From Candidatus Acetothermia bacterium (GTDB lineage Bacteria; Bipolaricaulota; Bipolaricaulia; RBG-16-55-9; JANLFV01), in assembly GCA_024653345.1 (NCBI GenBank), contig JANLFV010000005.1:790-64789 (forward strand): a stretch of DNA of 64,000 nt, in the 5' to 3' direction. Position 1 is the stretch's first letter. Every line of letters starts with the position of its first letter. The notes under the pieces were generated by a model that had not been told where the DNA came from, made no database searches, and worked only from the letters and a program-made list of their open reading frames with translations. Position numbers and translations under genes: made by a program. This document shows, one piece after another, positions 1-32,721 of this stretch.

Positions 1-132
1 AGGAGGCACAGGGCTCCCTTCATCTCCTGCCTCGGGGATGGAGGTGGAGATGGGCATCAGGCCCTCGCGGGGCAGGCAGCCTGTAAGGGGAAAGACCACG
101 AGGCAGAGGATTATCATGATAATTTGCTTCAT
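1..132 (-). CDS. lipoprotein, N-terminal part only (gene runs off the window start)
   Basis: Minus-strand ATG at about 132 preceded by GGGGTGA. Translation MKQIIMIILCLVVFPLTGCLPREG gives a hydrophobic signal plus LTGC lipobox. 5' partial. The plus ORF 38..274 overlapping it looks like a shadow. Confidence 0.35.
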   Translation of the reverse strand, partial: MKQIIMIILCLVVFPLTGCLPREGLMPISTSIPEAGDEGSPVPP

Positions 133-197
133 TTTCTCACCCCGAATGAGAGAGCCGGGGAGGCGGGTTTCCCCCGCCTCCCCGTGGATCTTCAGCT

Positions 198-644
198 TCA
201 CCTCGGCTTGGGCCGGAACTCCCCAGGGGGAATCCCCGGATTCTCTACCAATGGCTTCCGCTGAGCCGCGCTGAGGAAGTATTCCATGCCGTATGGGCCT
301 GGGAAGTCATTGCCCAAGGTCTGGACCGGCGTGACTGTGGTCCCAGTGATCTGGAAGACCGTCCACCAGTAGCCAGTTCCACTAGCATCGCAGGCCCTGA
401 AAGTCCCGACAAGGGCGCTCCCTTTGTATAGCCGGACCACAGCGTCGTCGTCACACCAGGATGTTTCTACACCATTAAAGTCGTGCACCGCGAAGGTGTA
501 GGTGCCGGTATATTTGGTCCGGAACACCGTGGTCTCAACGAACGGTGGCCACCAGGGCCGCCACGGTATCTCCCCAGGCTCGTCCCTTAGCAGCCGGGCG
601 AAGGGATGGACATTCAAGTTCCCTCGATCTAGCCAGAACACCAT
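198..644 (-). CDS. hypothetical protein (no recognisable motif)
   Basis: 148-aa ORF co-directional with and downstream of the protease gene. Trp/Tyr-rich, no signal peptide. Coding status uncertain. Confidence 0.3.
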   Translation of the reverse strand: MVFWLDRGNLNVHPFARLLRDEPGEIPWRPWWPPFVETTVFRTKYTGTYTFAVHDFNGVETSWCDDDAVVRLYKGSALVGTFRACDASGTGYWWTVFQITGTTVTPVQTLGNDFPGPYGMEYFLSAAQRKPLVENPGIPPGEFRPKPR

Positions 645-716
645 ATACTTATTCCGGTCCGGAAGAGTAGGAGGAAGCCAGAGGTAGGAATCAAGGTCCC
701 AATGGTTCCATCCTCG

Positions 717-2405
717 TCACTCCAGGACGGCTGTCCAGACATCGCTGGCCTGGGGCTTGGGCAGGGCGAAGAAGGGGAGCAAATTCCAGCACCCCTCGGG
801 AACTGACCAAGTCCTTTCATCGGCTGTGGTGATGTAGCCAGACTTGGAGGCAGTCACGGTGTAGTCACTTTGGGGTATGTTGGTGATGGTGAAGGTCCCG
901 TCGGCCCGGGTGGTGGCAGTGGGGGTGATTGTGCCGGACTTTGCGGTCACCGTGGCAGCTCCAAGGGGAAGGCCATTGTTCGCGTCCACGACCAAACCGA
1001 CGAGTGCCCCTCCCGCGGGCGGCATCGTCATCTTCGCCGCGAAGGCGCTATACAGATTAAGTTGTTTAACGCCATTCGGGAACGCGTGGCCATTGCATTC
1101 GTCAAGGTCGACGGGATCACCGGTCGTAGTGAGGAGGTCGGCTACCTGCTGACGAGTCAAGGTGGGCCACTTGCCCCACACTAAGGCCGCCGCCCCGGCC
1201 ACAAATGGGGAGGCCATCGAAGTCCCGTCGGACCAGTCATAATTAGGCTCGTAGAACCAAGACCCGGCTACTGGCGTAGTTGAGAAAATCCCCACACCTG
1301 GGGCAGCGATGTCCACGTAATCCCCGTAGTTAGAGAAACATGCTTTGCGGGTCCCTATCCAGCAGACATCTTGCCAGTTCAGCCACTCCTCCCATTTGAG
1401 TTCCGTTGCCCCCACCGCGAGGACATCAGGATAAGCTGCGGGGTAGAGTGGGTCTGTGATATCTTCGTTCCCAGCTGCGGCGACCACTAAGACCCCTTTG
1501 GTGTTCGTGGCATAATTGATGGCATCGGCGATGTATGGATCTGGCATGTAGCCACCCCAGCTCAGGTTGATGACCTTAACCCCAGAATAGTCGGCGGCAT
1601 AGACGATCCCCGCTGCGCCCGCGAAGATCGGGACCCACCATTCGCCGACCCGGATGGCGAGGACCTTGCTCTTCCCGGACACTCCGGCTACCCCAGAGTT
1701 GTTGTCGATGATGGCGGCAGCGATCCCGGCGACATGGGTTCCATGCCCAGTAGTATCCATTGGGTTCATATCGCCATCATAGTAGTCCGGCCCCTTGATG
1801 ACCTTGGCCGTGCCGAGGTCGGGGTGGGTGTAGTCCACCCCGGTGTCCACTACAGCCACGATGGGCGCGCTGGTCGGGAGCACTGAAGCCGCAATCTTAT
1901 GGAAATCGATAGCGAACATACCCCACTGCCAGTGGAAGTATCGGTCATTTGCAAAGTGTTCAGGGACAACAGGTTTGGCCTCCCTCCCCAAGAGCTGGTA
2001 TACATAGTTAAGCCCGACCGATTCTACATCTGGTTCCGCGGCGAGCTTGCCCTTCATCTCCGTCAAGTCCATCCCAGCTGGAATGCTAACCAGTATGAGC
2101 CTCAACCGGTTGATCCTCCCTCGCAGCACTAGTTTGTGCTTGTTGAGCAGGGCATTGATATTAGTCGTTGTGAATTTATCCGGCTTGAACTTCACAATGA
2201 GTTGGTCAGGGATGAACTTTATCGCTCGGGCTTCTACCGCTGTGAGAGCGGTAGGATAGGCCCCGGTATCCATCCAAACATCATCATTCACCGCTTCCGA
2301 ATCAAGGTCCTGAGGCAACAAACCGTCAAAGTAGGCGCAGCCACCCAACCATGCTACTGCAAGCATCAAGACGGCACATAATACTGAAACAATCCCAGGT
2401 TTCAC
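717..2405 (-). CDS. subtilisin-like serine protease (peptidase S8) lipoprotein with C-terminal carboxypeptidase-regulatory-like beta-sandwich
   Basis: Catalytic motifs VVDTGVDYTHPDL (Asp), GHGTHVAGIAAA (His), GTSMASPFVAGAAAL (Ser). N-terminal signal with LGGC lipobox. GTG start after AGGAGGGAGG. Confidence 0.9.
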   Translation of the reverse strand: MKPGIVSVLCAVLMLAVAWLGGCAYFDGLLPQDLDSEAVNDDVWMDTGAYPTALTAVEARAIKFIPDQLIVKFKPDKFTTTNINALLNKHKLVLRGRINRLRLILVSIPAGMDLTEMKGKLAAEPDVESVGLNYVYQLLGREAKPVVPEHFANDRYFHWQWGMFAIDFHKIAASVLPTSAPIVAVVDTGVDYTHPDLGTAKVIKGPDYYDGDMNPMDTTGHGTHVAGIAAAIIDNNSGVAGVSGKSKVLAIRVGEWWVPIFAGAAGIVYAADYSGVKVINLSWGGYMPDPYIADAINYATNTKGVLVVAAAGNEDITDPLYPAAYPDVLAVGATELKWEEWLNWQDVCWIGTRKACFSNYGDYVDIAAPGVGIFSTTPVAGSWFYEPNYDWSDGTSMASPFVAGAAALVWGKWPTLTRQQVADLLTTTGDPVDLDECNGHAFPNGVKQLNLYSAFAAKMTMPPAGGALVGLVVDANNGLPLGAATVTAKSGTITPTATTRADGTFTITNIPQSDYTVTASKSGYITTADERTWSVPEGCWNLLPFFALPKPQASDVWTAVLE

Positions 2406-2800
2406 GGCAGTCCTCCCTCCTTATTAGACTGATGTGAAGCGATCATTTCGTGCGTTTACGTCACCTCTTTCCCGCGAGAGGTTATTATTCACTCGCAGCT
2501 ATATCATTATACCCGAACATCCAAGCTAGTCATCTCCAAACTTAGATAGACACGGCAGTTTCACCCTTTGACACCCTAGTCTATTGTTCAGCAGGGGGCA
2601 TCAGTCCAAACCCTTGAGCTGGCTCGAGGCGAGGCGGCAGGAGGCCAGGTCGCCTAAGCCGTGTGTCCTGTTGTGCGATCGGATTTCGGGATTAGGCGCT
2701 CAGAATTAGATTCGGATCACGACCCCATGGAAGCGGCAGAGCTCAGGCATCGGCTCTGGCCGGCCTGGGATCCGGGAAGATCTCCTCAGGGACCTTCCCT

Positions 2801-2999
2801 GTTAGCCTAAGGTAGAGCGCGTCCGGGCAGAGGGCGATCTCCTCCTCCCAGGCGATGGCCCCGGCCTCATCATCTATCCTGACCGCCTCGAAGAAGGCCC
2901 GGTCTTTGCGCCCCGAAAGAGCCGCAGGGTCAGGTCTTGCAATGAGACATCTCCTGCTGCGCGGCCTGGGATGTTGCAATGCAAGACCTGACCCCAACT
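2801..2999. repeat. repeat copy 1: segment a (2801-2818), 130-nt spacer, segment b (2951-2999); includes hairpin 2927-2995 with a 15-bp stem
   Basis: Segments a (gttagcctaaggtagagc) and b (ctcctgctgcgcggcctgggatgttgcaatgcaagacctgaccccaact) recur contiguously at 3756-3820 in the order b-a. Read directly from the sequence. Confidence 0.6.
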
Positions 3000-3014
3000 G
3001 CTGAAGCCACGGGT

Positions 3015-3269
3015 TCAGCCTGTTAAACCCAGACGACGTAGATCTGTTTCGTCCCACCCGATGTCTCCAAGCAGAGCCCGCAGCATCTTCGGGCTGAAGA
3101 TCTTGCGCCTGTGATAGTGTATCGCTACGATGCGTGGCCCTTTGCGGAAGACGCGCCGTGATCCCCTACCCTTGCGCAGTTGCCAGCCATCGCGCTCCAG
3201 AGCCGCCATGAGCTCATCCGCGGTGATAGTCTTGATCTGGTCCCAAACCTGAGGAGGCCAGCTCATCAA
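3015..3269 (-). CDS. hicA: HicA-family toxin (mRNA interferase), copy 1
   Basis: 84 aa with ELMAALERDGWQLRKGRGSRRVF...IHYHRRKIFSPKMLRALLGDIGW, matching the HicA (YcfA) fold. 4-nt overlap with the upstream hicB. The usual His in the GSH motif is Arg here. Confidence 0.75.
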   Translation of the reverse strand: MMSWPPQVWDQIKTITADELMAALERDGWQLRKGRGSRRVFRKGPRIVAIHYHRRKIFSPKMLRALLGDIGWDETDLRRLGLTG

Positions 3270-3544
3270 ACCGAGATTGAGACCGGCTTCGTATATATCT
3301 GCACGCCGGGGGGAATAGCTTCCACCACTCCCGTGGGGATGGGATCGCCATCTTCGATGAGGACTTCTAGATAGAGCTGGGCCAGCTCTTGGGCGCGTTG
3401 GACGGCTTCAGCCGCTGTCGCTCCGTCGGCATGAAGCCCTGGCAGCATGGGGCTCCAGGCGTGATAGCGGTCTCCGTCGGGCTCAACGAGAAAGACGATC
3501 TGGAAGGTCAGTGTTCCTGCGTGCGGTTTGAGCTCTTGAGCCAT
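3266..3544 (-). CDS. hicB: HicB-family antitoxin (RNase-H-like N domain), copy 1
   Basis: TFQIVFLVEPDGDRYHAWSPMLPGLHADGATAAEAVQRAQELAQLYLEVLIEDGDPIP matches the HicB/UPF0150 pattern. GAGGAG RBS 5 nt before the ATG. Antitoxin sits first in the operon. Confidence 0.75.
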   Translation of the reverse strand: MAQELKPHAGTLTFQIVFLVEPDGDRYHAWSPMLPGLHADGATAAEAVQRAQELAQLYLEVLIEDGDPIPTGVVEAIPPGVQIYTKPVSISV

Positions 3545-3664
3545 AACAACTCCTCATTCCTTCATCTCATGGCAGCACCAGATCACCCTGAACCATCACG
3601 CCGGCAAGCACGCAGCAGTCAAGCGCTGCGATCGCGCTCTTCACGTTTCCCGCCTTCGCTTGCA

Positions 3665-3694
3665 ATTGTAGCACTTTCGGCCCCGCGTGGTCAA
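3665..3694 (-). promoter_or_regulatory. sigma70-like promoter for hicBA-1 (TTGACC-N18-TACAAT on the minus strand)
   Basis: Minus-strand TTGACC (plus 3689-3694) and TACAAT (plus 3665-3670) with an 18-nt spacer, about 120 nt upstream of the hicB ATG. Confidence 0.4.
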
Positions 3695-4404
3695 TAGAGC
3701 GGGCAGTGCTGGGGCATCGGGTCAGATACTGTATCGCTCGTCAAGTTGCTACCCCCTCCTGCGCGGCCTGGGATGTTGCAATGCAAGACCTGACCCCAAC
3801 TCGTTAGCCTGAGGTAGAGCTTGCTGATGATCAGTATGGATCTAGAACTTGACCCCGGGGGCTTTTCCGAGCCGGTGGGGGCCTCAAGGTAGGGAGCGGC
3901 CTCGAACCCGAACTGCCTCGCGATCAGATTCCCCGGGAACCGCCGGATCGCGGCGTTATACTCCTTCACTGAATCGTTGTAGCGCTTCCTCGCCACGGCG
4001 ATCCTATTCTCCGTCCCCGCCAGCTCGTCCATCAGCCGGATGAAGGTCTGGTTCGACTTCAAGTCGGGGTAGTTCTCTACGACCACGAGGAGCCTCGCTA
4101 AGGCCCCGGCCAGGGCCGCGTCGGCCTCGAGCTTACCCGCAAGGTCCTGCGCCCCGGCATACTGAGTCCGGGCGGTCGCGATCTCCTCGATGATCGTCCG
4201 CTCCTGGGCCGCGAACCCCTTGACCGTCTCCACGAGGTTGGGGATCAGCTCGAACCGCCGCTGGAGCTGGTTGGCGATCTCCGCTTGGCTATTCGAAATC
4301 TCCTCACGCATCGTCACGAAGCGGTTGTAGTTCCCCACGGTCAGGAAGTAGATGACCAACCCCAGGATCACGACCACGACCGCGACGACCAAGCCCTTCT
4401 TCAC
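3691..4404 (-). CDS. lemA: LemA family membrane protein; 3' end reads through repeat copy 2
   Basis: N-terminal TM helix, then QLQRRFELIPNLVETVKGFAAQERTIIEEI...RYNDSVKEYNAAIRRFPGNLIARQFGF (LemA signature). Likely GTG start at 4404 after AAGGAGG; the track ORF begins further 5'. The last 40 or so codons are translated repeat sequence. Confidence 0.85.
   Translation of the reverse strand: MKKGLVVAVVVVILGLVIYFLTVGNYNRFVTMREEISNSQAEIANQLQRRFELIPNLVETVKGFAAQERTIIEEIATARTQYAGAQDLAGKLEADAALAGALARLLVVVENYPDLKSNQTFIRLMDELAGTENRIAVARKRYNDSVKEYNAAIRRFPGNLIARQFGFEAAPYLEAPTGSEKPPGSSSRSILIISKLYLRLTSWGQVLHCNIPGRAGGGSNLTSDTVSDPMPQHCPLY
3756..3820. repeat. repeat copy 2: segments b and a contiguous (b 3756-3801, a 3803-3820)
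   Basis: Near-identical to the copy-1 segments but permuted. Lies inside the 3' end of the lemA ORF. Confidence 0.6.
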
Positions 4405-4463
4405 CTTCGCCTCCTTGTGAGGGAGTCTAGCGTCTGGCCTAGGGCTTGTCAAAGGCGGCCGAC

Positions 4464-4492
4464 TTGCAGCCGCGGGGGCTTTTGGTATATAT
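4464..4492 (+). promoter_or_regulatory. candidate promoter TTGCAG-N16/17-TATATA for the aminotransferase gene
   Basis: Hexamers seen in sequence about 45 nt upstream of ATG 4535. Confidence 0.35.
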
Positions 4493-4534
4493 TCGGGGTG
4501 CGAGGTGACTCTAATTCTTAACAGGAGGCCGGGA

Positions 4535-5764
4535 ATGGATGAATTGTTCTCCCGACGGACGCGGGCCGTCAAGCGCTCGGAGATCCGCGAGCTGTTGAAG
4601 CTGGCGGAGCGACCGGAGGTGATCTCGTTCGCGGGCGGCTTCCCCGACCCCGCGACCTTTCCCCATCGCGAGCTGGCCGCGGTCGCCCAGAAGGTCCTGG
4701 GCGAGGACTACGATCGCTCGCTCCAGTATGGCGCCACTGAGGGGGACCGGCTCTTCCGCGAGGCGGTCTGCGAGTGGCTCGGCCGGCAGGGGCTTGCGCT
4801 CTCCCGGGAGGAGGTGACGGTCACCAGCGGCTCGCAGCAGGCGATCGACCTGATCTGCAAGGTCTTCCTCGACCCCGGGGATGTGGTCTTCTGCGACCTT
4901 CCCACCTACCTCGCGGCCATCCAGTCCTTCACGGCCTTCGAGGTCGAGAAGGTGGGGATCCCCCAGCGCGAGGACGGGATGGACCTGGAGATCCTCGAGG
5001 AGAAGATCGAGGAGGTGAGCCGCCAGGGGAAGCGGGCCAAGCTGATCTACCTCGTCCCGGACTTTCATAATCCCACGGGGATCACCATGAGCCTGGTCAA
5101 GCGCCGCCGGGTCCTGAAGATCGCCGAGCGGCATAACTTGGTGATCATCGAGGACAACCCCTACGGCCAGGTCCGGTTCGAGGGCGAGCCGCTCCCGATG
5201 CTGAAGAGCCTCGATCGGACGGGAAGGGTCGTCCTGCTCCTCACCTTCTCCAAGATCCTCTGCCCCGGCCTCCGGCTGGCGGTGATCGTCGCGTCACCCA
5301 GAATCACCGAGCAGATCGTGAAGCTCAAGCAGCCCGCCGACCTCTGCAGCTCCTCCTTCACCCAGCGGCTGGCCTACGAGTTCATGACCAGATACGACTT
5401 TGCGGCGCACATCGACGAGATCCGCGCGCTCTACCGGGAGAAGCGGGACACGATGCTCGAGGCACTCGAGGCCTACATGCCCAAGCATCCCGGGATCCAC
5501 TGGACCAAGCCCCAGGGCGGGCTCTTCGTCTGGCTCACCCTCCCGGAGTTCGTCGACACTCGGGAAATGTTCCCCCGCGCGGTCGAGCGGAATGTGGCCT
5601 ATGTGGTGGGCTCGGCGTTCTTCGTCGACGGGAGCGGGCAGAATACGATGCGCCTGGCCTTCTGCGAGCCGACCCCCGAGCTGATCCGCGAGGGGATCAG
5701 GCGCTTGGCCGAGGTGATCGAGGCGGAGCTGAGCGTCGCCAGCGCGGCCGTCGCCTCTAAGTGA
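4535..5764 (+). CDS. class I/II PLP-dependent aminotransferase (2-aminoadipate / aromatic aminotransferase-like, LysN/ARO8 family)
   Basis: SFAGGFPDPATFP N-terminal motif, SKILCPGLRLA (PLP lysine), C-terminal fold II. ATG 4535 with AGGAGG 6 nt upstream; the track ORF starts at an upstream GTG. Confidence 0.85.
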   Translation: MDELFSRRTRAVKRSEIRELLKLAERPEVISFAGGFPDPATFPHRELAAVAQKVLGEDYDRSLQYGATEGDRLFREAVCEWLGRQGLALSREEVTVTSGSQQAIDLICKVFLDPGDVVFCDLPTYLAAIQSFTAFEVEKVGIPQREDGMDLEILEEKIEEVSRQGKRAKLIYLVPDFHNPTGITMSLVKRRRVLKIAERHNLVIIEDNPYGQVRFEGEPLPMLKSLDRTGRVVLLLTFSKILCPGLRLAVIVASPRITEQIVKLKQPADLCSSSFTQRLAYEFMTRYDFAAHIDEIRALYREKRDTMLEALEAYMPKHPGIHWTKPQGGLFVWLTLPEFVDTREMFPRAVERNVAYVVGSAFFVDGSGQNTMRLAFCEPTPELIREGIRRLAEVIEAELSVASAAVASK

Positions 5765-26897: not shown

Positions 26898-28517
26898 CTA
26901 GAGGACTTCCCGGCCCGGTTCGAGGAGGAGGACTCGCAGGATGAACGGCGGTATCGCCAGGGCCCTTCTCGCCCGCCACGGCTGGCGTAGCAGCCGGTAG
27001 AGCCATTCCAGGCCGAGCTGGCGCAGAACGCGCGGGGCCCGCGGGAGCCGCCCCGAGAGGACATCGAGGCTCCCTCCGACCCCGATGAGGACCTTTGCCT
27101 TGAGCTCACGCTTGTGCTCCAGCATCCACAGCTCCTGCCGCGGGACGCCCAGCCCGACGAGCAGAACCTCGGCCTCGGAGGCGTTGATCAGCCCGATGAT
27201 CTCGCGGTCATCAGCGAAGTAGCCGTGATGGGTTCCCACGATCCTGATCCCCGGGAAGCGCTCCTCCAACTGCGCCTTGGCCTCCTCGGCTACGCCGGGA
27301 GCCGCCCCGAGGAGGAAGAGCCTGTAGCCCCGCGAGGCCGCGCGCCGGCAGAGCTCCTCGGCCAGCTCGATCCCCGTGACCCGCTCCGGCAGGGGTGCTC
27401 TCCAGAAGCGCGAGGCCCAGACTATCCCCGTCCCGTCGGCGGTGACGAGGTCGGCCTGCTGATAGGCCTCCTTCAGCCTTTGATCCCGCTGGGCCCGCCA
27501 GAGGGCGGTCGTGTCGGGAGTCATGACGACCGCCTGCCGGCCCTCGGCCAGTCGCCGCTCGAGGAAGTCGGCCGCCTCCTGCAGCCTCAGCCGCGCTAGA
27601 GGGACGCCGAAGAGCCGAAGCTGCCTCTCCGTCGAGAGGAGCTGATCGCCCGCGGCCGGGCTCCCCCAGCGCCACAGGATGAAGCCCAGCGGGACAAGCC
27701 CGCCGAGGAGGAGTAGCCCCGGCCTGGGGGTGCGCCAGAGGACGAGGCCGATGCTGAAGTAGCTCGCCAACAGATAGAAGAGGAGGCCATGGTGTCGGAG
27801 GGTCCGGAGGAGCGCAGCCCGCTCGGCCGGGCCGTAAGCGATCGGGAGCGTGGTCGTCCAGAGCGGGAGCCCGAGCGAGAGCAGCGGCCCGAGCAGCGCC
27901 AAGGAGGCAGTCGTCTTGAGGACCCCGGCGATGGAGATGAGCGCCAGGGCAAAGCCCACGGCCTCGGGAGCGGCCAGCCCTCGGCCGCGGAGGAACCAGG
28001 CCGACAGGAGCCCGAGGAGGCTGACAACCAGGGCAAGGGCGAACAGCGGCGACTGGCCCTGAAATAGCCCGATGATCAAGAAGACTACGGTCGTGAGCAG
28101 CGCGATCTTCAGCCCCAGCCGCCCCGCGCTCCAGGAGTTGATCAGGCTCAATGAGTGGGCCACAACGGCGATCCAGCCGAGCGTGAGCGGGAGGCTGAGA
28201 TAGCTCAGGTAGATGAAGCCACCGCTGGGACTGGTGATGAAGGAGATCCTGAAGCCGGCAGCGTAGGCGATCCCGCCCGCGAAGAGGACCAGCGCAAGGC
28301 GGAGCCAGGGGCTGTTCCCCCAGCGCCTGCCGAGCGCACTTCCGACAAGGAGCATCGCCAGGCCCGCCCCCAGGCCGAGGAGCCGCCCGTCCGGGCCGAG
28401 CGGGATCAAGGCCAACGGCAGGGCGAGCAGACTCCGCCCTGGCCGGCGGCGGGCGAATGCCAGCCCGGCGATCAGCGCGAGCCCCAGGACCACCACCAGC
28501 TCCATTACAGTTGACAT
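26898..28517 (-). CDS. fusion: N-terminal polytopic membrane domain (about 290 aa, 8-10 TM) + C-terminal WecB/TagA/CpsF family glycosyltransferase (GT26)
   Basis: C-terminal half QAVVMTPDTTALWRAQRDQRL...ADLVTADGTGIVWASRF...LLVGLGVPRQELWM matches GT26. The N-terminal half is all TM helices. Confidence 0.8.
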   Translation of the reverse strand: MSTVMELVVVLGLALIAGLAFARRRPGRSLLALPLALIPLGPDGRLLGLGAGLAMLLVGSALGRRWGNSPWLRLALVLFAGGIAYAAGFRISFITSPSGGFIYLSYLSLPLTLGWIAVVAHSLSLINSWSAGRLGLKIALLTTVVFLIIGLFQGQSPLFALALVVSLLGLLSAWFLRGRGLAAPEAVGFALALISIAGVLKTTASLALLGPLLSLGLPLWTTTLPIAYGPAERAALLRTLRHHGLLFYLLASYFSIGLVLWRTPRPGLLLLGGLVPLGFILWRWGSPAAGDQLLSTERQLRLFGVPLARLRLQEAADFLERRLAEGRQAVVMTPDTTALWRAQRDQRLKEAYQQADLVTADGTGIVWASRFWRAPLPERVTGIELAEELCRRAASRGYRLFLLGAAPGVAEEAKAQLEERFPGIRIVGTHHGYFADDREIIGLINASEAEVLLVGLGVPRQELWMLEHKRELKAKVLIGVGGSLDVLSGRLPRAPRVLRQLGLEWLYRLLRQPWRARRALAIPPFILRVLLLEPGREVL

Positions 28518-28809
28518 TAAACCCGACGAGCCCGGTCAAGTGAAAGAAGGGGGTGAGATGGACTCCGGACCTTTGTCCCCTGGCACGGCAGCCTCGGCCG
28601 ATTCCAGCCAAATCATAACCTCGGCGGGCAGCCCCAGGTTAAGGTCTATGACGCCGCAGTGGTCGCTCGCGTCAATACTCCGTCAGGTATCCCGTCTCAA
28701 GAGCATGAACACGGCACGCTGGGGGTTGCGCAAGAGTGGGTAGTTGCTTTATTATGATCGCTATTAAGGAAAGGTGGTCGCCGAACCCCATGGAGATGGG
28801 AGGGTCGAT

Positions 28810-29796
28810 ATGGGTGTTGAGTTCTCGCCTCAAGAAGTTATTGAATTCTTAGGAGGCCGGGACGAGTTTCGCAAGTTCCTTGGACAAAAGGTCCACGCCG
28901 CCGAGGTGGCTAAGAGCCTAGTGGAGGCGGCCTTGGCCGGCAAAGGTGATGCCTACAGCTCTTCTCTTCAGGACACAATCAACCGCATTGGTGAGCTCTT
29001 AGGGTTCCAAGTGACATACGGGGAATACCGGAGTGGGCCGGACGGGATCTGGCTCTCCTCGATGGACCGTGCTCTCGTAGTGGAAGTGAAGACCTCCACC
29101 AGCTTCCGCATCTCCCATGAGGTGCTCTTGGGGTATATGGACCAGGTCAAGAGCGAGCGCGGAGTCCCCAAGGGGAGTGTTCTGGGGCTCTATGTCATCG
29201 GGCGTCAAGAGGATGACACAACTCAGATTGAGGACAGTATCAGGGGCGGGGGCCGCGAGCGCGAGCTGCGCATGATCTCTGCCCATGAACTGATCGCGCT
29301 CTTGGAACTGAAGGAAGAAGCAGGACTAGACCATGAGCAAGTCCTGGTCTTCTTGCCGCTTGACTTGGTCAACTTAGGCCCACTTATCCGCCAGGTGAGG
29401 GCGATGCTTCTTGCTTGCGCTCGCGGTGAGGGTGCTCAGCCTGAAACTCCTACACTGGAAGAACCATCCCTGCCTCCTAAAGGCAAGCGGCGGCTGGTAA
29501 GACTCAAAGACCTATTGAAACGAGGGATCATAGAGCCGGGGATGGAATTTCATGCGAAGCGTAAAGGCAAGGAGTATACGACTACAGTCTCTGCCAATGG
29601 CAAGTTGATCTTGGGCAAGAAAGAGTTCGAAACGCCTTCAGCTGCCGCCTGCGCTGCGGCCAAGACCACTGCCGAAGATGGGTGGTTCTTCTGGCACTAT
29701 AGAGATGCCCAGACTGGCCAGCTGGCCCCGATTGCCGAACTCCGGGCCAAGCTAACCGGCGGGCTCCGCAACCCTTACCTGCCGAAGGGAAAATGA
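28810..29796 (+). CDS. PD-(D/E)xK restriction-endonuclease-like domain + C-terminal DUF4357/RAMA-like domain protein (low-GC island)
   Basis: GPDGIWLSSMDRALVVEVKTS gives a PD...EVK nuclease motif. C-terminus YTTTVSANGKLILGKKEFETPSAAACAAAKTTAEDGWFFWHY gives the SPS-AA / GW..W pattern of DUF4357/RAMA. GGGAGGG RBS before ATG 28810. Local GC much lower than the flanks. Confidence 0.55.
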   Translation: MGVEFSPQEVIEFLGGRDEFRKFLGQKVHAAEVAKSLVEAALAGKGDAYSSSLQDTINRIGELLGFQVTYGEYRSGPDGIWLSSMDRALVVEVKTSTSFRISHEVLLGYMDQVKSERGVPKGSVLGLYVIGRQEDDTTQIEDSIRGGGRERELRMISAHELIALLELKEEAGLDHEQVLVFLPLDLVNLGPLIRQVRAMLLACARGEGAQPETPTLEEPSLPPKGKRRLVRLKDLLKRGIIEPGMEFHAKRKGKEYTTTVSANGKLILGKKEFETPSAAACAAAKTTAEDGWFFWHYRDAQTGQLAPIAELRAKLTGGLRNPYLPKGK

Positions 29797-29866
29797 AGAA
29801 GAGCATTGGCTGGTTCTAAAGTCAACCGTGGTCCATCTTCAAAATCCCGGGGAGCTTGGAGTGCCG

Positions 29867-30670
29867 ATGGCCGGGAAGCGGGAGGCGGTGTATGAGGCGG
29901 TGGTCTCGCTGCTGCGGGCGCGGCTGGAGAACGTAAAGAGCATCCGAGATATGCACTTGATTTACATGGACGACTCTCGTGATGAGCAACTTTGCGCATT
30001 CTCGGCTCTAGCTGTGCCAGCAGATCAATGGCAAGAGGCATTTGCCCAAGTGCGCGCGTTCAGGCGCGGCCTTAAGAGATCTGATGGAATCTATGTTTAT
30101 AAAGAGCTTCATGCCTGGAAATTTGTCTCAGGACGAGGCAAGATCTCTGATCGAGTGGTTCCTAAAGGCCGGCGCTGTGAAATCTTCAAACAAGCCTTGC
30201 AAATGGTTGCTAGCCTTCCGGGAAGTCGTCTCTTCAACGCCGTATTCCCTGCCAAGCAAGATACTTGGGCATTCGAGTGACTGCTCAATCGTATTAACCG
30301 GACTATGAGCGCTTGGGATAGTCGAGCCATCTTGATCTGTGATACTGGTAAGGAGTTAGCCTATATACGCCTAGTTCGCCGCTTGCATATCTACAACCCT
30401 ATACCCAGTAAACACGGGGTCTGGGAAGATACAGGCACAGCGACGAAAAATATCCCCATTGAGCGCATTATTGAAGATCCGTTCTTCAAGCGCTCGGAGC
30501 AATCGTACTTCATCCAGTTAGCTGATTTTTGCGCTTATGCGCTCTTACGGAAGGAGCGACCGGTCCCCTCCAAGACAGAATATGGCTTAGATCGCGCGTT
30601 TGAATTGCTCAAGCCTATCCTGGTCTTGGAGGCAAGCCCCCGGGATCCTGAAGGCGTTATTCGTCCTTAG
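29867..30670 (+). pseudogene. DUF3800 family gene interrupted by an in-frame TGA (two track ORFs 29828..30280 and 30305..30670 in the same frame)
   Basis: N-terminal MHLIYMDDSRDEQLCAFSAL resembles the DUF3800 IY-DESG start. C-terminal FIQLADFCAYALLR resembles the DUF3800 Q.AD motif. Both halves are in the same frame, separated by TGA at 30278-30280. Low-GC. Confidence 0.45.
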
Positions 30671-30770
30671 CCTCAAAAAGAAGAGCAGGGCCTAGCTCCG
30701 CCACCGAGGACGGGTTCGGTCCTGCATAACTACTATAACAGCTCGTCGGACGAATGTCAAGTGCTGTGAG

Positions 30771-30851
30771 GTGACGGCGGGCGAGCGCGACGCTGTCTAT
30801 GAGGCAATGATCGCACTGGTGCAATCGCCGCTGGAGAAGGTAAAGTGTATA
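30771..30851 (+). pseudogene. 5' remnant (about 27 codons) of a second DUF3800 paralogue, truncated by the hicBA-2 cassette
   Basis: VTAGERDAVYEAMIALVQSPLEKVKCI aligns with MAGKREAVYEAVVSLLRARLENVKSI at the start of the intact DUF3800 gene. The upstream 30 nt are also similar. Homology ends about 20 nt before the hicB-2 ATG. Confidence 0.4.
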
Positions 30852-30871
30852 ATGGGAGAAGGTGAGACGAC

Positions 30872-31092
30872 ATGGGCAAGTATCAGTTTACTGTTGTCGT
30901 AGAGAGCGATGAGGATGGCGTGTATATCGCCTCCTGCCCCGCAGTTCAGGGATGCTACTCCCAGGGGGTACCTACGAAGAGGCATTAAGGAATCTTAAGG
31001 ATGCCATCAAGCTGCACATTGAGGCGCGCCGGAGCGTGGGAGAGCCGATTCCCATCGAGATCGCCGTAGATCGGGTAGAGATTGATGTCTAA
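30872..31092 (+). pseudogene. hicB: HicB-family antitoxin, copy 2, with a -1 frameshift in a G5 run (30964-30968)
   Basis: Frame 0: MGKYQFTVVVESDEDGVYIASCPAVQGCYSQG, then stop at 30986. The -1 frame continues GTYEEALRNLKDAIKLHIEARRSVGEPIPIEIAVDRVEIDV to the stop at 31090-31092. Joined, they give a canonical HicB. Confidence 0.6.
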
Positions 31093-31282
31093 GCTCCGCC
31101 CAGCCAAGTCCGAAGAAGTGCAGAGGATCTTAGAGCAGCTGGGCTTTCAGCCCATCCGTCAAAGTGGCAGTCACGCTGTCTACCGCTATCCTAATGGCCG
31201 CTGGACTGCGGTGCCCCTTCATCCAGGCAGGGAGGTATCCAAAGGGACGCTGAGAGTCGATGAATTTGAAGCGTTGTGCTGA
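31085..31282 (+). CDS. hicA: HicA-family toxin, copy 2
   Basis: MSKLRPAKSEEVQRILEQLGFQPIRQSGSHAVYRYPNGRWTAVPLHPGREVSKGTLR fits the HicA fold and has the catalytic His in GSH. ATG overlaps the hicB-2 stop. Confidence 0.7.
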   Translation: MSKLRPAKSEEVQRILEQLGFQPIRQSGSHAVYRYPNGRWTAVPLHPGREVSKGTLRVDEFEALC

Positions 31283-31326
31283 CGGTTGGGGAGCGCGCCA
31301 CATTCTCTAAGGCTATGGGTGAGCGA

Positions 31327-32721
31327 TTACTTCCCCACACAGAAGTTGGCGAAGATCCGGTCGATGACCTCCTCGGTGAGGTTCTCCCCGGTCAGCTCGC
31401 CCAGGATCGCCAGGGCCTCCTCCAGCCCGGTCGCCAGCAGGTCCGGGGTCGCCCCCGCTCTGGCGTCGGCGAGGGTCGCCTTTAAGGCCCCTTTCGCCCG
31501 CTGGAGCAGCTCCTTCTCGCGGATGTTCAATAAGAACAGGCCTTCAGGCCTCTCGAGCCGGCCCTCCCAGACCAGCCCGACCAGCCGCCCCTTCAGCTCC
31601 TCGAGGCCGGTGCCGAGCTTGGCCGAGATCTCTAGGACGCCTTCGGGCTCGATTCCCAGGGCCACAACCGCCTCTTGCGGAGAGAAGCTCTTCTCGAGGT
31701 CGGCCTTATTCAACACCAGGATGGTGCGCTTCCCCTGTAGTCTCTTGGCGATCAGCCGGTCCTCCGCCGTGAGCGGCTCGCTCAGGTCGAGCAGGAAGAG
31801 CACCAGGTCCGCCCCCTCCGCGGCCTTGAGGGCCAGCTCGACCCCGAGCCGCTCGACCGCGTCATGGACCTCCCGGACCCCGGCGGTGTCGATCAGTTTG
31901 AAGGGGATTCCCTCGAGCTCGACCCACTCCTCGAGCCGGTCCCGGGTCGTCCCCGGGAAGGGGGTGACGATGGCCCGCTCCTCCTGGAGGAGGGCGTTCA
32001 AGAGCGTGGACTTCCCCACATTCGGCCGGCCGATGAGCGCGACCGCCAGCCCCTCGCGGATGATCCGCCCATCCCGGCCGTGCTCGAGGAAGTATTCTAC
32101 CTGAGCGAGGGCCGCCTCCAGCTCCCCGAGGAGCCGCTCTCGCGGGAGGGCCTCCTCCTCGTAGTCGGGGAAGTCGAGCCCCACCTCAATCCCAGCCAGA
32201 AGGTCGAGGAGCCTCTCGCGGAGCTCTTTGATCGGGCGGGAGAAGCGGCCCTCGAGCCTTTGCATCGCGCATTCCAGCCCGAGCTCCGTCTTGGCTCGGA
32301 CGATCTCCAGGACCGCCTCGGCCTGGTCGATCGAGATCCGCCCATTGAGGAAGGCCCGCTTGGTGAACTCCCCCGGCCCGGCCGGCCGCGCACCCTTCGC
32401 CAGGACGAGCTCCAGGACCCGCCGGAGCGGGACGATTCCCCCGTGGCAGTCGATCTCCACCACATCCTCGCGGGTGTAGGTCCGGGGGGCACGCATCACG
32501 GCCACGAGGACCTCATCGACCCTCTCCCCGCCAGCCTCGATGAAGCCGTAATGGATGGTGTGACTCGGGGCATCCCGGAGCCTGATCCCCTTCGGTGAGC
32601 GGAAGAGTCCGTCGACGATCGCGATCGCCTGGGGGCCGGAGAGGCGGACGATCCCGATCCCACCCTCCCCGAGGGGGGTCGAGATCGCGGCGATCGTATC
32701 CTCAGTGTAGGCGCGGCTCAA
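31327..32721 (-). CDS. mnmE: tRNA modification GTPase MnmE
   Basis: N-terminal GIVRLSG, G-domain GRPNVGKSTLLN / DTAG, C-terminal CVGK. Confidence 0.95.
   Translation of the reverse strand: MSRAYTEDTIAAISTPLGEGGIGIVRLSGPQAIAIVDGLFRSPKGIRLRDAPSHTIHYGFIEAGGERVDEVLVAVMRAPRTYTREDVVEIDCHGGIVPLRRVLELVLAKGARPAGPGEFTKRAFLNGRISIDQAEAVLEIVRAKTELGLECAMQRLEGRFSRPIKELRERLLDLLAGIEVGLDFPDYEEEALPRERLLGELEAALAQVEYFLEHGRDGRIIREGLAVALIGRPNVGKSTLLNALLQEERAIVTPFPGTTRDRLEEWVELEGIPFKLIDTAGVREVHDAVERLGVELALKAAEGADLVLFLLDLSEPLTAEDRLIAKRLQGKRTILVLNKADLEKSFSPQEAVVALGIEPEGVLEISAKLGTGLEELKGRLVGLVWEGRLERPEGLFLLNIREKELLQRAKGALKATLADARAGATPDLLATGLEEALAILGELTGENLTEEVIDRIFANFCVGK

Follow-up and report, generated by a model that had tools for sequence, protein, structure and literature searches.

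A probable insertion hotspot between wecG and mnmE in a Candidatus Acetothermia genome, with a RAMA-domain nuclease gene, a DUF3800 gene facing a predicted small RNA gene, and a damaged hicB-hicA pair

Between a wecG-type glycosyltransferase gene and mnmE, a genome of Candidatus Acetothermia (Bipolaricaulota) carries a low-G+C islet that encodes a nuclease with a RAMA domain, a DUF3800 protein and a HicBA-type toxin-antitoxin (TA) pair, and the question raised by this locus is whether these genes work as one system or as several. The islet lies in a stretch of 64,000 nucleotides (nt) of contig JANLFV010000005.1 (assembly GCA_024653345.1), hereafter called the window; its sequence is the consensus of a metagenome-assembled genome (MAG), and all folds described here are predictions. 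An earlier note on this DNA had joined the nuclease and the DUF3800 gene into one candidate defence system stabilised by the TA pair. We consider it probable that the segment between the wecG-type gene and mnmE is instead a variable insertion hotspot holding three unrelated, horizontally acquired modules that do not form a single system; the locus is best described as a site in the Candidatus Acetothermia genome at which cassettes come and go. The first module would be the nuclease-RAMA gene, the sole gene of the islet that appears both intact and selectively maintained. The DUF3800 gene and a convergent small RNA gene would make up the second, a separate two-part unit that appears to have arrived together with relics of a repeat, here called R, and the third would be a hicB-hicA remnant. 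Outside the nuclease gene, the islet is decaying cargo. The coordinates of all features are collected in Table 1.

The view that the islet is foreign-looking DNA is borne out by its base composition and codon usage. The G+C content of positions 28540-31300 is 0.552, compared with 0.657 +/- 0.039 in the remainder of the window (500-nt windows), and a sliding-window plot shows a trough at about 28.5-31.3 kb, with values of 0.50-0.58 against 0.67-0.71 on either side. The drop proposed in the earlier note is real, but its depth of about 50% G+C, set against two-thirds outside, does not apply to the whole islet and fits only the DUF3800 gene, to which the minimum of 0.49-0.50 is confined. The shift in codon usage described in the same note is present as well: G+C at third codon positions (GC3) is 0.64 in the nuclease gene, 0.52 in the DUF3800 gene and 0.61 in hicA/hicB, compared with 0.88-0.91 in wecG, mnmE and jag. 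As had also been noted, there is no methyltransferase among the open reading frames (ORFs) of the islet.

The genomic company kept by the nuclease and by DUF3800 in other genomes bears directly on whether the two belong together. Relatives of the window nuclease were found in six other contexts (loci are designated L followed by a number). The closest relative, L013 (91% identity to the window nuclease), is accompanied by a DUF3800 gene. Loci L001-L004 (85%) share the wecG...mnmE synteny and carry HicA-HicB followed by a HicB-like gene, L005 (73%) has no cargo neighbours and lies between a zincin gene and lon, and L012 (72%) is followed by an MJECL33 gene, a 355-amino-acid (aa) protein and HicA-HicB. 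A Phd/ParE pair and a membrane protein accompany L011 (70%), while an IS66 transposase and an integrase fragment are found at L006-L010 (55%). DUF3800 therefore adjoins the nuclease in one of the six contexts, L013, and is absent from L001-L004, L005, L006-L010, L011 and L012. When the DUF3800 family was taken as the starting point, none of 85 loci (25 from species genomes and 60 from metagenomes) had a homologue of the nuclease within 3-4 kb. Homologues of the two genes thus essentially never co-localise elsewhere, except in one near-identical lineage (L013), and even the window and L013 differ in how far each gene has diverged: the synonymous distance (dS) is 0.54 for the nuclease and 0.21 for DUF3800, indicating that the two genes have different histories and that DUF3800 was shared or exchanged more recently.

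These results make it extremely unlikely that the nuclease-RAMA and DUF3800 genes constitute a new two-gene defence system held in place by a HicBA addiction module. In favour of such a system, the two stand side by side in the same orientation both in the window and in L013, which has an intact DUF3800, and both families occur in defence-type neighbourhoods; DUF3800 lies near type I restriction-modification (R-M) and TA genes in L039 and near methylase genes in L041 and L058. Set against this are the separate occurrence of the two families, the unequal dS of two genes compared between the same two genomes, the nonsense mutation in the DUF3800 gene of the window next to a nuclease gene under strong purifying selection, and damage to both hicB and hicA, which speaks against the pair as a stabilising module. 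In addition, the PADLOC match (PDC-S14, E 2e-16) covers the RAMA part of the nuclease protein only. Naming the protein from PADLOC or NCBIfam was abandoned, the matches there being at the level of RAMA (PDC-S14, methylase C-termini and the CcrM C-terminus), and neither resource gave anything for DUF3800, HicA or HicB. The claim of a nuclease plus DUF3800 defence system should not be carried forward.

The nuclease gene encodes a 328-aa protein with a FokI/HindIII-like PD-(D/E)xK domain (aa 1-205), a disordered linker (aa 206-227) and a RAMA domain (aa 229-327). A hidden Markov model (HMM) search matched RAMA (PF18755) over aa 229-327 with 66.5 bits (cutoff 35.2; E 2e-18; profile positions 6-101 of 107), which upholds the RAMA assignment of the earlier note; the alternative name it had given to the same domain, DUF4357 (PF14267), found no match at E<=1. 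The PD...EVK nuclease core proposed there is also supported. Residues D78 and E92 are invariant and K94 nearly invariant among 28 homologues, and D, E and K are kept in at least 90% of 107 more distant relatives. An AlphaFold (AF2) model built from the 28 homologues (predicted local distance difference test score, pLDDT, 83) consists of two domains and the disordered linker. The N-terminal domain has, in this predicted structure, a restriction-endonuclease-like alpha/beta fold, and its top fold matches are FokI (15.3; figures here as listed), the R.BspD6I small subunit (15.0), Nt.BspD6I (14.8) and HindIII (13.6), with NucS/EndoMS and Holliday-junction resolvases among the weaker ones. The C-terminal domain adopts the RAMA fold in the model and matches the C-terminal domain of CcrM (13.2) and the RAMA domain of mouse MPND (11.5). 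Foldseek concurs with the nuclease and RAMA matches. A hypothetical protein from a Candidatus Acetothermia MAG has exactly the same sequence (100% identity), and the N-terminal MGVEF of the window protein is common to all close homologues.

The nuclease gene shows signs of selective maintenance. Its ratio of nonsynonymous to synonymous change (omega) is 0.08-0.10, compared with 0.20 for mnmE, indicating strong purifying selection. The window and L001 proteins share 85.5% identity, much the same as for MnmE (86%), so the gene has been kept at this locus since the two lineages split, despite its foreign composition. Retention at the same locus with MnmE-like conservation, the lack of partner genes, and the presence of NucS/EndoMS and Holliday-junction resolvases among the fold matches could also suit a nuclease that serves no defence role and is a housekeeping-type repair, recombination or chromatin-associated enzyme, or a selfish homing-type nuclease. 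We regard this as highly unlikely, given the foreign G+C and GC3 of the gene, its patchy and rare distribution (29 matches in a word search; 447 cluster representatives for the nuclease domain), its neighbours (TA modules, the IS66 transposase and integrase fragments) and the restriction enzymes that head the list of fold matches.

The wider family of the nuclease domain suggests what the C-terminal half may be for. A HMMER search with the nuclease domain alone collected the 447 cluster representatives mentioned above; in those listed the domain is N-terminal, and about 150-200 variable residues follow it in this family. The recognisable C-terminal partners among 107 sampled relatives are RAMA, Mrr_N, DUF2924, DUF4357, the SeqA C-terminal domain, DUF4268 and DUF5655 (DUF4357 in just 2 of the 107), and an EVE/YTH-like domain also partners the same nuclease domain in relatives. 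Proteins P0012-P0026 (about 380 aa) and P0150-P0297 are examples of relatives with swapped C-terminal domains. The FokI-like domain thus looks like the common part of a small uncharacterised family of probable modification-dependent nucleases.

This architecture makes it most likely that the nuclease-RAMA gene encodes a solitary endonuclease of the modification-dependent (type IV-like) kind. We favour this reading because a cleavage domain is combined with interchangeable readers of modified bases, and because no adjacent methylase is found in seven contexts (the window, L001, L005, L006, L011, L012 and L013). The type IV-like idea of the earlier note is plausible on the same grounds, the swaps being to EVE/YTH-like, SeqA_C, Mrr_N or DUF4357 domains. 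As a working mechanism, RAMA would dock the protein on DNA carrying a foreign base modification, most plausibly N6-methyladenine (6mA), the FokI-like domain, probably once dimerised, would then cut nearby, and the enzyme would act without a methylase. The work that named the domain already noted fusions of RAMA to nucleases and predicted that they read adenine methylation (PMC4738411), and such fusions have been put forward as type IV candidates (PMC11037411).

In its design the protein resembles known type IV fusions of a reader and a nuclease, such as DpnI and HhiV4I (winged helix and PD-(D/E)xK), VcaM4I (EVE and HNH) and MspJI/AspBHI, which likewise combine one reader and one non-specific cleavage domain in a single polypeptide. 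As with these enzymes, the gene has no methylase partner and lies in a variable island, and paralogues of its nuclease domain carry EVE/YTH-like, SeqA_C or Mrr_N domains in place of RAMA. It differs from them in that the reader is RAMA, the nuclease comes first and the reader last, and the activity is a prediction. With the type IIS enzymes FokI and R.BspD6I/Nt.BspD6I and with HindIII, the N-terminal domain shares a fold while being only 9-15% identical and having no Pfam or Protein Data Bank (PDB) sequence match; unlike these enzymes, the protein has no methylase partner, and its dimerisation-dependent cleavage is assumed by analogy. The Pfam RAMA match is common to the window protein and to other RAMA proteins, among them CcrM (C-terminal), mouse MPND (N-terminal) and PDC-S14. 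However, CcrM is a methylase, MPND belongs to a eukaryotic deubiquitinase family, and PDC-S14 shares the RAMA region and not the nuclease domain.

Several points weigh against the type IV-like reading. Residues 1-217 of the protein have no Pfam family match, and profiles of both nuclease families found nothing among PDB sequences; the nuclease assignment of the N-terminal domain therefore draws on the predicted structure, the conserved motif and one weak match to NOV_C (23.9 bits, in the distant homologue P0029), while 1 of the 107 relatives matches PDDEXK_4. The dependence on modification, and the specificity, are read from domain architecture. A cognate methylase could sit elsewhere in the host genome, as the check for methylases covered the islet and the compared loci. 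Both the restriction activity and the modification preference of RAMA as a reader are so far predictions (PMC11037411, PMC9963953), and the sole solved RAMA-DNA complex, that of mouse MPND, shows no preference for 6mA DNA (PMC9963953; PMC11037411).

In an alternative reading, the nuclease would supply the restriction activity of a classical or type IIS-like R-M system, the adenine methylase having been lost here (with R as a relic of its tail) or being encoded elsewhere, and RAMA serving for sequence recognition and not for the sensing of modification. The name RAMA reflects a link to adenine methylases and to the restriction enzymes that go with them (PMC4738411). Among known cleavage domains, those of type IIS FokI and BspD6I come closest, and immediately 3' of the nuclease gene the window, L013 and L001 all have repeat R, which is similar to the 3' end of a gene for an Eco57I-type N6-adenine methylase. 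When in complex with DNA (6pbd), the C-terminal domain of CcrM reportedly binds without reading methylation, and in our data it is the fold match between RAMA and CcrM that was seen. We nevertheless hold an R-M origin to be unlikely. Cells normally die when a restriction enzyme persists after the loss of its methylase, yet this gene is undamaged, has an omega of about 0.09 and occurs in at least seven lineages without an adjacent methylase; the L005, L006 and L011 contexts have neither a methylase nor R, and sister families swap RAMA for EVE/YTH-like or SeqA_C domains, which are readers of modified bases. The RAMA-nuclease protein remains a credible candidate for a solitary type IV-like enzyme, of a kind already predicted, and it could become the first characterised RAMA-dependent type IV restriction enzyme. 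If so, it would reveal what RAMA domains read, a matter in dispute, since 6mA reading has been claimed for MPND and is structurally unconfirmed; a 328-aa enzyme with cutting as the read-out would offer a simple assay for this question.

The second module begins with a DUF3800 gene whose frame is interrupted. ORFs 29828-30280 and 30305-30670 are in the same frame and are split by one TGA at 30278-30280, which is codon 110 of 240. With the stop bridged (as X), PF12686 matches over its full length (profile positions 1-149; 45.1 bits, cutoff 21), and two motifs defined for the family (PMC7736814) can be recognised, DD/DE in the N-terminal part and QLAD (QxxD) in the C-terminal part. The family assignment of the earlier note is thus sound; the gene is not an intact frame. 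The L013 orthologue is an uninterrupted ORF of 239 aa starting with MHLIY and has CGA (Arg) where the window has TGA. Since TGA is a normal stop in the islet and L013 has CGA, the stop is a nonsense mutation. Recoding of TGA was rejected: the nuclease gene and hicA end in TGA, and a simple C>T change accounts for the difference from L013. Omega between the window and L013 is 0.135. In the literature DUF3800 is taken to be a nuclease with an RNase H fold, found alongside type VII retrons and at some class 2 CRISPR (Cas12a2/Cas13) loci (PMC7736814, PMC10910872, PMC12669027), and the cassette described here is widespread and mobile, occurring across many phyla with proteins 55-80% identical.

What travels with this cassette is a short sequence on its 3' side. 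The 60 nt directly 3' of the DUF3800 stop are conserved in Dehalococcoidia, Chloroflexia, Kiritimatiellia, Salinibacter, Poribacteria, KSB1, Nitrospirales and others, and it is here that a predicted small RNA gene lies, on the minus strand and convergent with DUF3800. Its predicted sigma-70 promoter is the sole promoter-like site in 28400-31400. The mean score of the best promoter match is 9.6 of 12 over 51 distinct loci and 7.4 in shuffled sequences; 39 of the 51 reach at least 9 of 12, and in 35 of these 39 the -10 element ends 6-8 nt before the hairpin. The pairing of the two-helix hairpin is kept in 88% of cells in an alignment of 43 distinct sequences, against 35-50% when the partners are slid. 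Cells with changes on both sides number 20, compared with 7.7 +/- 1.8 in shuffles, none of 500 shuffles reaching 20, and compensatory changes occur in four of the six inner-helix pairs. Terminators on the minus strand are present in at least 46 of the 51 loci, as a U-run directly in 22 and as a second GC-rich hairpin with a U-run in at least 24, while a T-run on the opposite strand is found in 4 loci only. The minus strand is assigned because of the promoter and these terminators. With its own promoter, a covarying structure and its own terminator, the element has, as judged from sequence, the marks of an independent small RNA gene.

A covariance model built from the 43 distinct sequences, the copy of the window included, finds one copy in the window (69.1 bits, E 4e-17) and copies beside DUF3800 in about 75 of the 85 loci, with no match in loci that carry the nuclease only. 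The copies, at loci within L013-L094, lie just 3' of the DUF3800 gene. Two observations count against the small RNA gene. The stability of the window hairpin is not above that of shuffled sequence (z = -0.48), and an attempt to assign the strand from base-pair and wobble counts was uninformative (530 of 602 cells for minus, 523 for plus). The idea that the loop of the hairpin might act as an anti-Shine-Dalgarno sequence and pair near the start of DUF3800 was considered by eye and dropped, the loop sequence not being conserved in that way.

Eleven RNA motifs that are unrelated to one another and of unknown function, DUF3800-I to -XI, have been described beside DUF3800 genes (Weinberg et al. 2017, PMC5737381), and the hairpin is most likely a further member of this set. 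Like DUF3800-I and other motifs, it is a structured RNA that neighbours a DUF3800 gene, is encoded on the other strand and has an intrinsic terminator after it; it differs in being very small (a 41-nt hairpin), in having a clear promoter of its own and in lacking an Rfam match. A search with Rfam 15, which contains at least DUF3800-I and DUF3800-IX (PMC11701678), left the RNA unmatched in 28400-31400 (E<=10), and the surroundings of DUF3800 in 8 other loci were unmatched as well (E<=1). A chance match to RAGATH-28 (11.5 bits, gathering score 45.3) was all that came up, and it is through Rfam only that the hairpin is set apart from the published motifs II-XI. Our leading guess is that the RNA may be the specific ligand or antidote of the DUF3800 nuclease, in a pair resembling a TA system. 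Protein recognition is favoured over simple antisense action because unpaired bases are nearly invariant across phyla.

That DUF3800 and the 41-nt hairpin RNA form an undescribed, widely transferred two-component element, made of an RNase H-fold nuclease and its cognate small RNA, is put forward as a tentative and still doubtful proposal. Two mechanisms would fit if it were true: an RNA-controlled toxin or abortive-infection module analogous to the type VII retron, or a new mobile cassette whose insertion is mediated by its own RNase H-fold protein. The roughly 75 instances with promoter, 41-nt hairpin and terminator would supply a small protein-RNA pair for testing DUF3800, and the linked RNA is the most interesting by-product of this analysis, of moderate interest in itself. 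In the window the RNA has C at 30695, where 41 of the 43 sequences have G. This substitution at a nearly invariant base, together with the change from CGA to TGA, suggests that the DUF3800 module of the window is dead or dying.

The DUF3800 gene and its RNA stand between two copies of repeat R, each of 78 nt and 73% identical to the other. R lies upstream of the DUF3800 ORF and not inside it, and in L013 a stop codon parts the R segment from that ORF. What the earlier note had taken for a truncated second DUF3800 copy (30771-30902, 43 aa) contains no DUF3800 sequence and has no Pfam match; it is the second copy of R, which in L013 runs straight into the 3' end of mnmE. By eye, and without quantification, the differences between the copies are mostly synonymous in frame. 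The in-frame peptide of R (..EAVYEAVVSLLRARLENVKSI) is similar to the tail (..EEERLQVYRAVVELIKK..) of a methylase of the Eco57I type with 1234 aa, and a tail (..LGLTEEERLQVYRAVVELIKK..) directly upstream of DUF3800 in L041 and L042 also resembles the R peptide. In L041 (16-3720) the 1234-aa protein, which matches Eco57I, MmeI_Mtase and N6_Mtase, runs in frame into DUF3800. Judged from this peptide resemblance, R is probably what remains of the 3' coding end of a gene for an Eco57I-type N6-adenine methylase.

Elsewhere, R is found upstream of hicA in L001 (7073-7124), on either side of hicAB in L012 (3602-3639 and 4085-4106), neither of these two loci having DUF3800, and on both sides of DUF3800 in L039 (2912-2949 and 3849-3867). 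It flanks different cassettes (DUF3800 or hicAB) in Acetothermia loci, as if marking a recurrent insertion site, and it looks as though inserted cassettes either carry R along or duplicate it. In 12 of 70 loci the DUF3800 cassette stands between direct repeats of local sequence (19-122 nt, 74-100% identical), compared with inverted repeats in 1 of 70, which hints at mobility of the cassette with long target duplications. Such direct repeats are seen in L045 (515-622/1527-1634), L058 (2839-2960/3851-3972), L068 (128-229/1143-1244), L092 (2842-2927/3946-4030) and eight more loci. The cassette is often located at the 3' ends of R-M methylase genes. These ends were considered as a universal insertion target of DUF3800 and rejected, since they adjoin it in a minority of loci only, the others having it after SpoIID-like or unrelated genes.

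The third module was described in the earlier note as a HicBA pair. HMM matches support this for HicA and, after repair of its frame, for HicB; an intact pair is not present, as both genes are damaged. Counting from its ATG at 30872, hicB has lost one nt at about 30962/30963 relative to L001, by a run of five G (G5), and the first frame ends after 38 codons. Once repaired, it matches PF15919 with 43 bits (cutoff 27) and also UPF0150, while the unrepaired ORF scores 17.2 bits, below the cutoff; the L001 orthologue is intact (82 aa, 77% identical). The hicA product matches PF07927 with 61.4 bits (E 9e-17; profile positions 2-50 of 58). At the junction 31254/31255 its gene lacks 27 nt, or 9 codons, which encode most of the C-terminal helix and are present in L001 (..KIIKDLGIT..). 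The L001 hicA has frameshifting deletions of its own, of 7 nt and 2 nt. Since the L001 gene is broken too, and differently, the pair decays independently in both lineages. With type II HicAB modules the window pair shares its HicA and HicB-like HMM matches and the overlap of its genes; it differs in that the order is hicB then hicA and both genes are damaged.

A sceptic could read the gene decay of the islet as an artefact of assembly or consensus calling, the DUF3800 module and HicBA being functional in the organism itself. The hicB lesion is a single-base deletion beside the G5 homopolymer, a MAG consensus can carry such errors, and this frameshift could therefore be an assembly error, which tells against decay of that gene; the low omega of DUF3800 between the window and L013 would likewise suit a working gene. 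On the whole we judge this explanation quite unlikely. The DUF3800 lesion is a C>T substitution and not an indel, the hicA lesion is a clean 27-nt deletion, hicA is also broken, in another way, in the independent assembly of L001, and the RNA is substituted at a nearly invariant base. Four independent lesions within 1.3 kb suit decay more than error.

Table 1. Features of the low-G+C islet (window coordinates)
Feature	Position	Strand	Basis or remark
5' flank of islet, between wecG-type glycosyltransferase start and nuclease gene	28518..28809		Patchy alignment to L001/L002
Intact gene for 328-aa two-domain nuclease-RAMA protein (predicted)	28810..29796	+	Pfam, AF2 model, conserved motif, omega
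Repeat R, copy 1	29866..29943	+	Directly upstream of DUF3800
DUF3800 (RNase H-fold) gene with in-frame TGA	29950..30670	+	PF12686; comparison with L013
Predicted small RNA gene, convergent with DUF3800	30675..30760	-	Promoter, covariation, terminator
RNA promoter	TTGACA 30760-30755, 17-nt spacer, TATAGT 30737-30732	-	11/12 positions and TG extension
Conserved 41-nt two-helix hairpin	30725-30685	-	6 nt beyond -10 element
U-run	30684-30675	-	Ends 5 nt short of DUF3800 stop codon
Repeat R, copy 2 (taken earlier for a truncated second DUF3800)	30773..30850	+	Direct repeat of copy 1
hicB-type antitoxin gene, frameshifted	30872..31092	+	PF15919 after repair
hicA-type toxin gene, 27-nt in-frame deletion	31082..31282	+	PF07927

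Upstream of the nuclease gene, the 5' flank lacks about 210 nt that L001 and L002 have, and the two can be aligned there in patches only; the sequence GGGAGGG, which resembles a ribosome-binding site, and the ATG at 28810 are conserved. ORF 28540-28743 was rejected as a gene, having no Pfam match and poor conservation. L001-L003 carry a 77-aa ORF upstream of the nuclease gene (5751-5984 in L001, corresponding to 28590-28640 of the window), about 210 nt of which are missing in the window. No Pfam family matches this ORF, which is possibly the remnant of an older gene. A relic of a phospholipase D (PLD)-type nuclease was considered at this place in L001 from N-terminal motifs only, and was dropped when the Pfam search came back empty.

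Other cargo was seen at a related locus and elsewhere in the window. In L012 (1236-3558) the nuclease-RAMA gene is followed by an MJECL33-family gene, by the 355-aa protein, which contains VFVECK (PD-ExK-like), and then by HicA-HicB; the MJECL33-family gene and the VFVECK protein are possibly another cargo pair in the same hotspot. A second low-G+C stretch of the window, at 1-3600 (0.49-0.60), may likewise have been acquired. It carries a subtilase gene (717-2405, minus strand) and a HicB-like ORF (3266-3544, minus strand), and just beyond it lies a LemA gene (3691-4572, minus strand).

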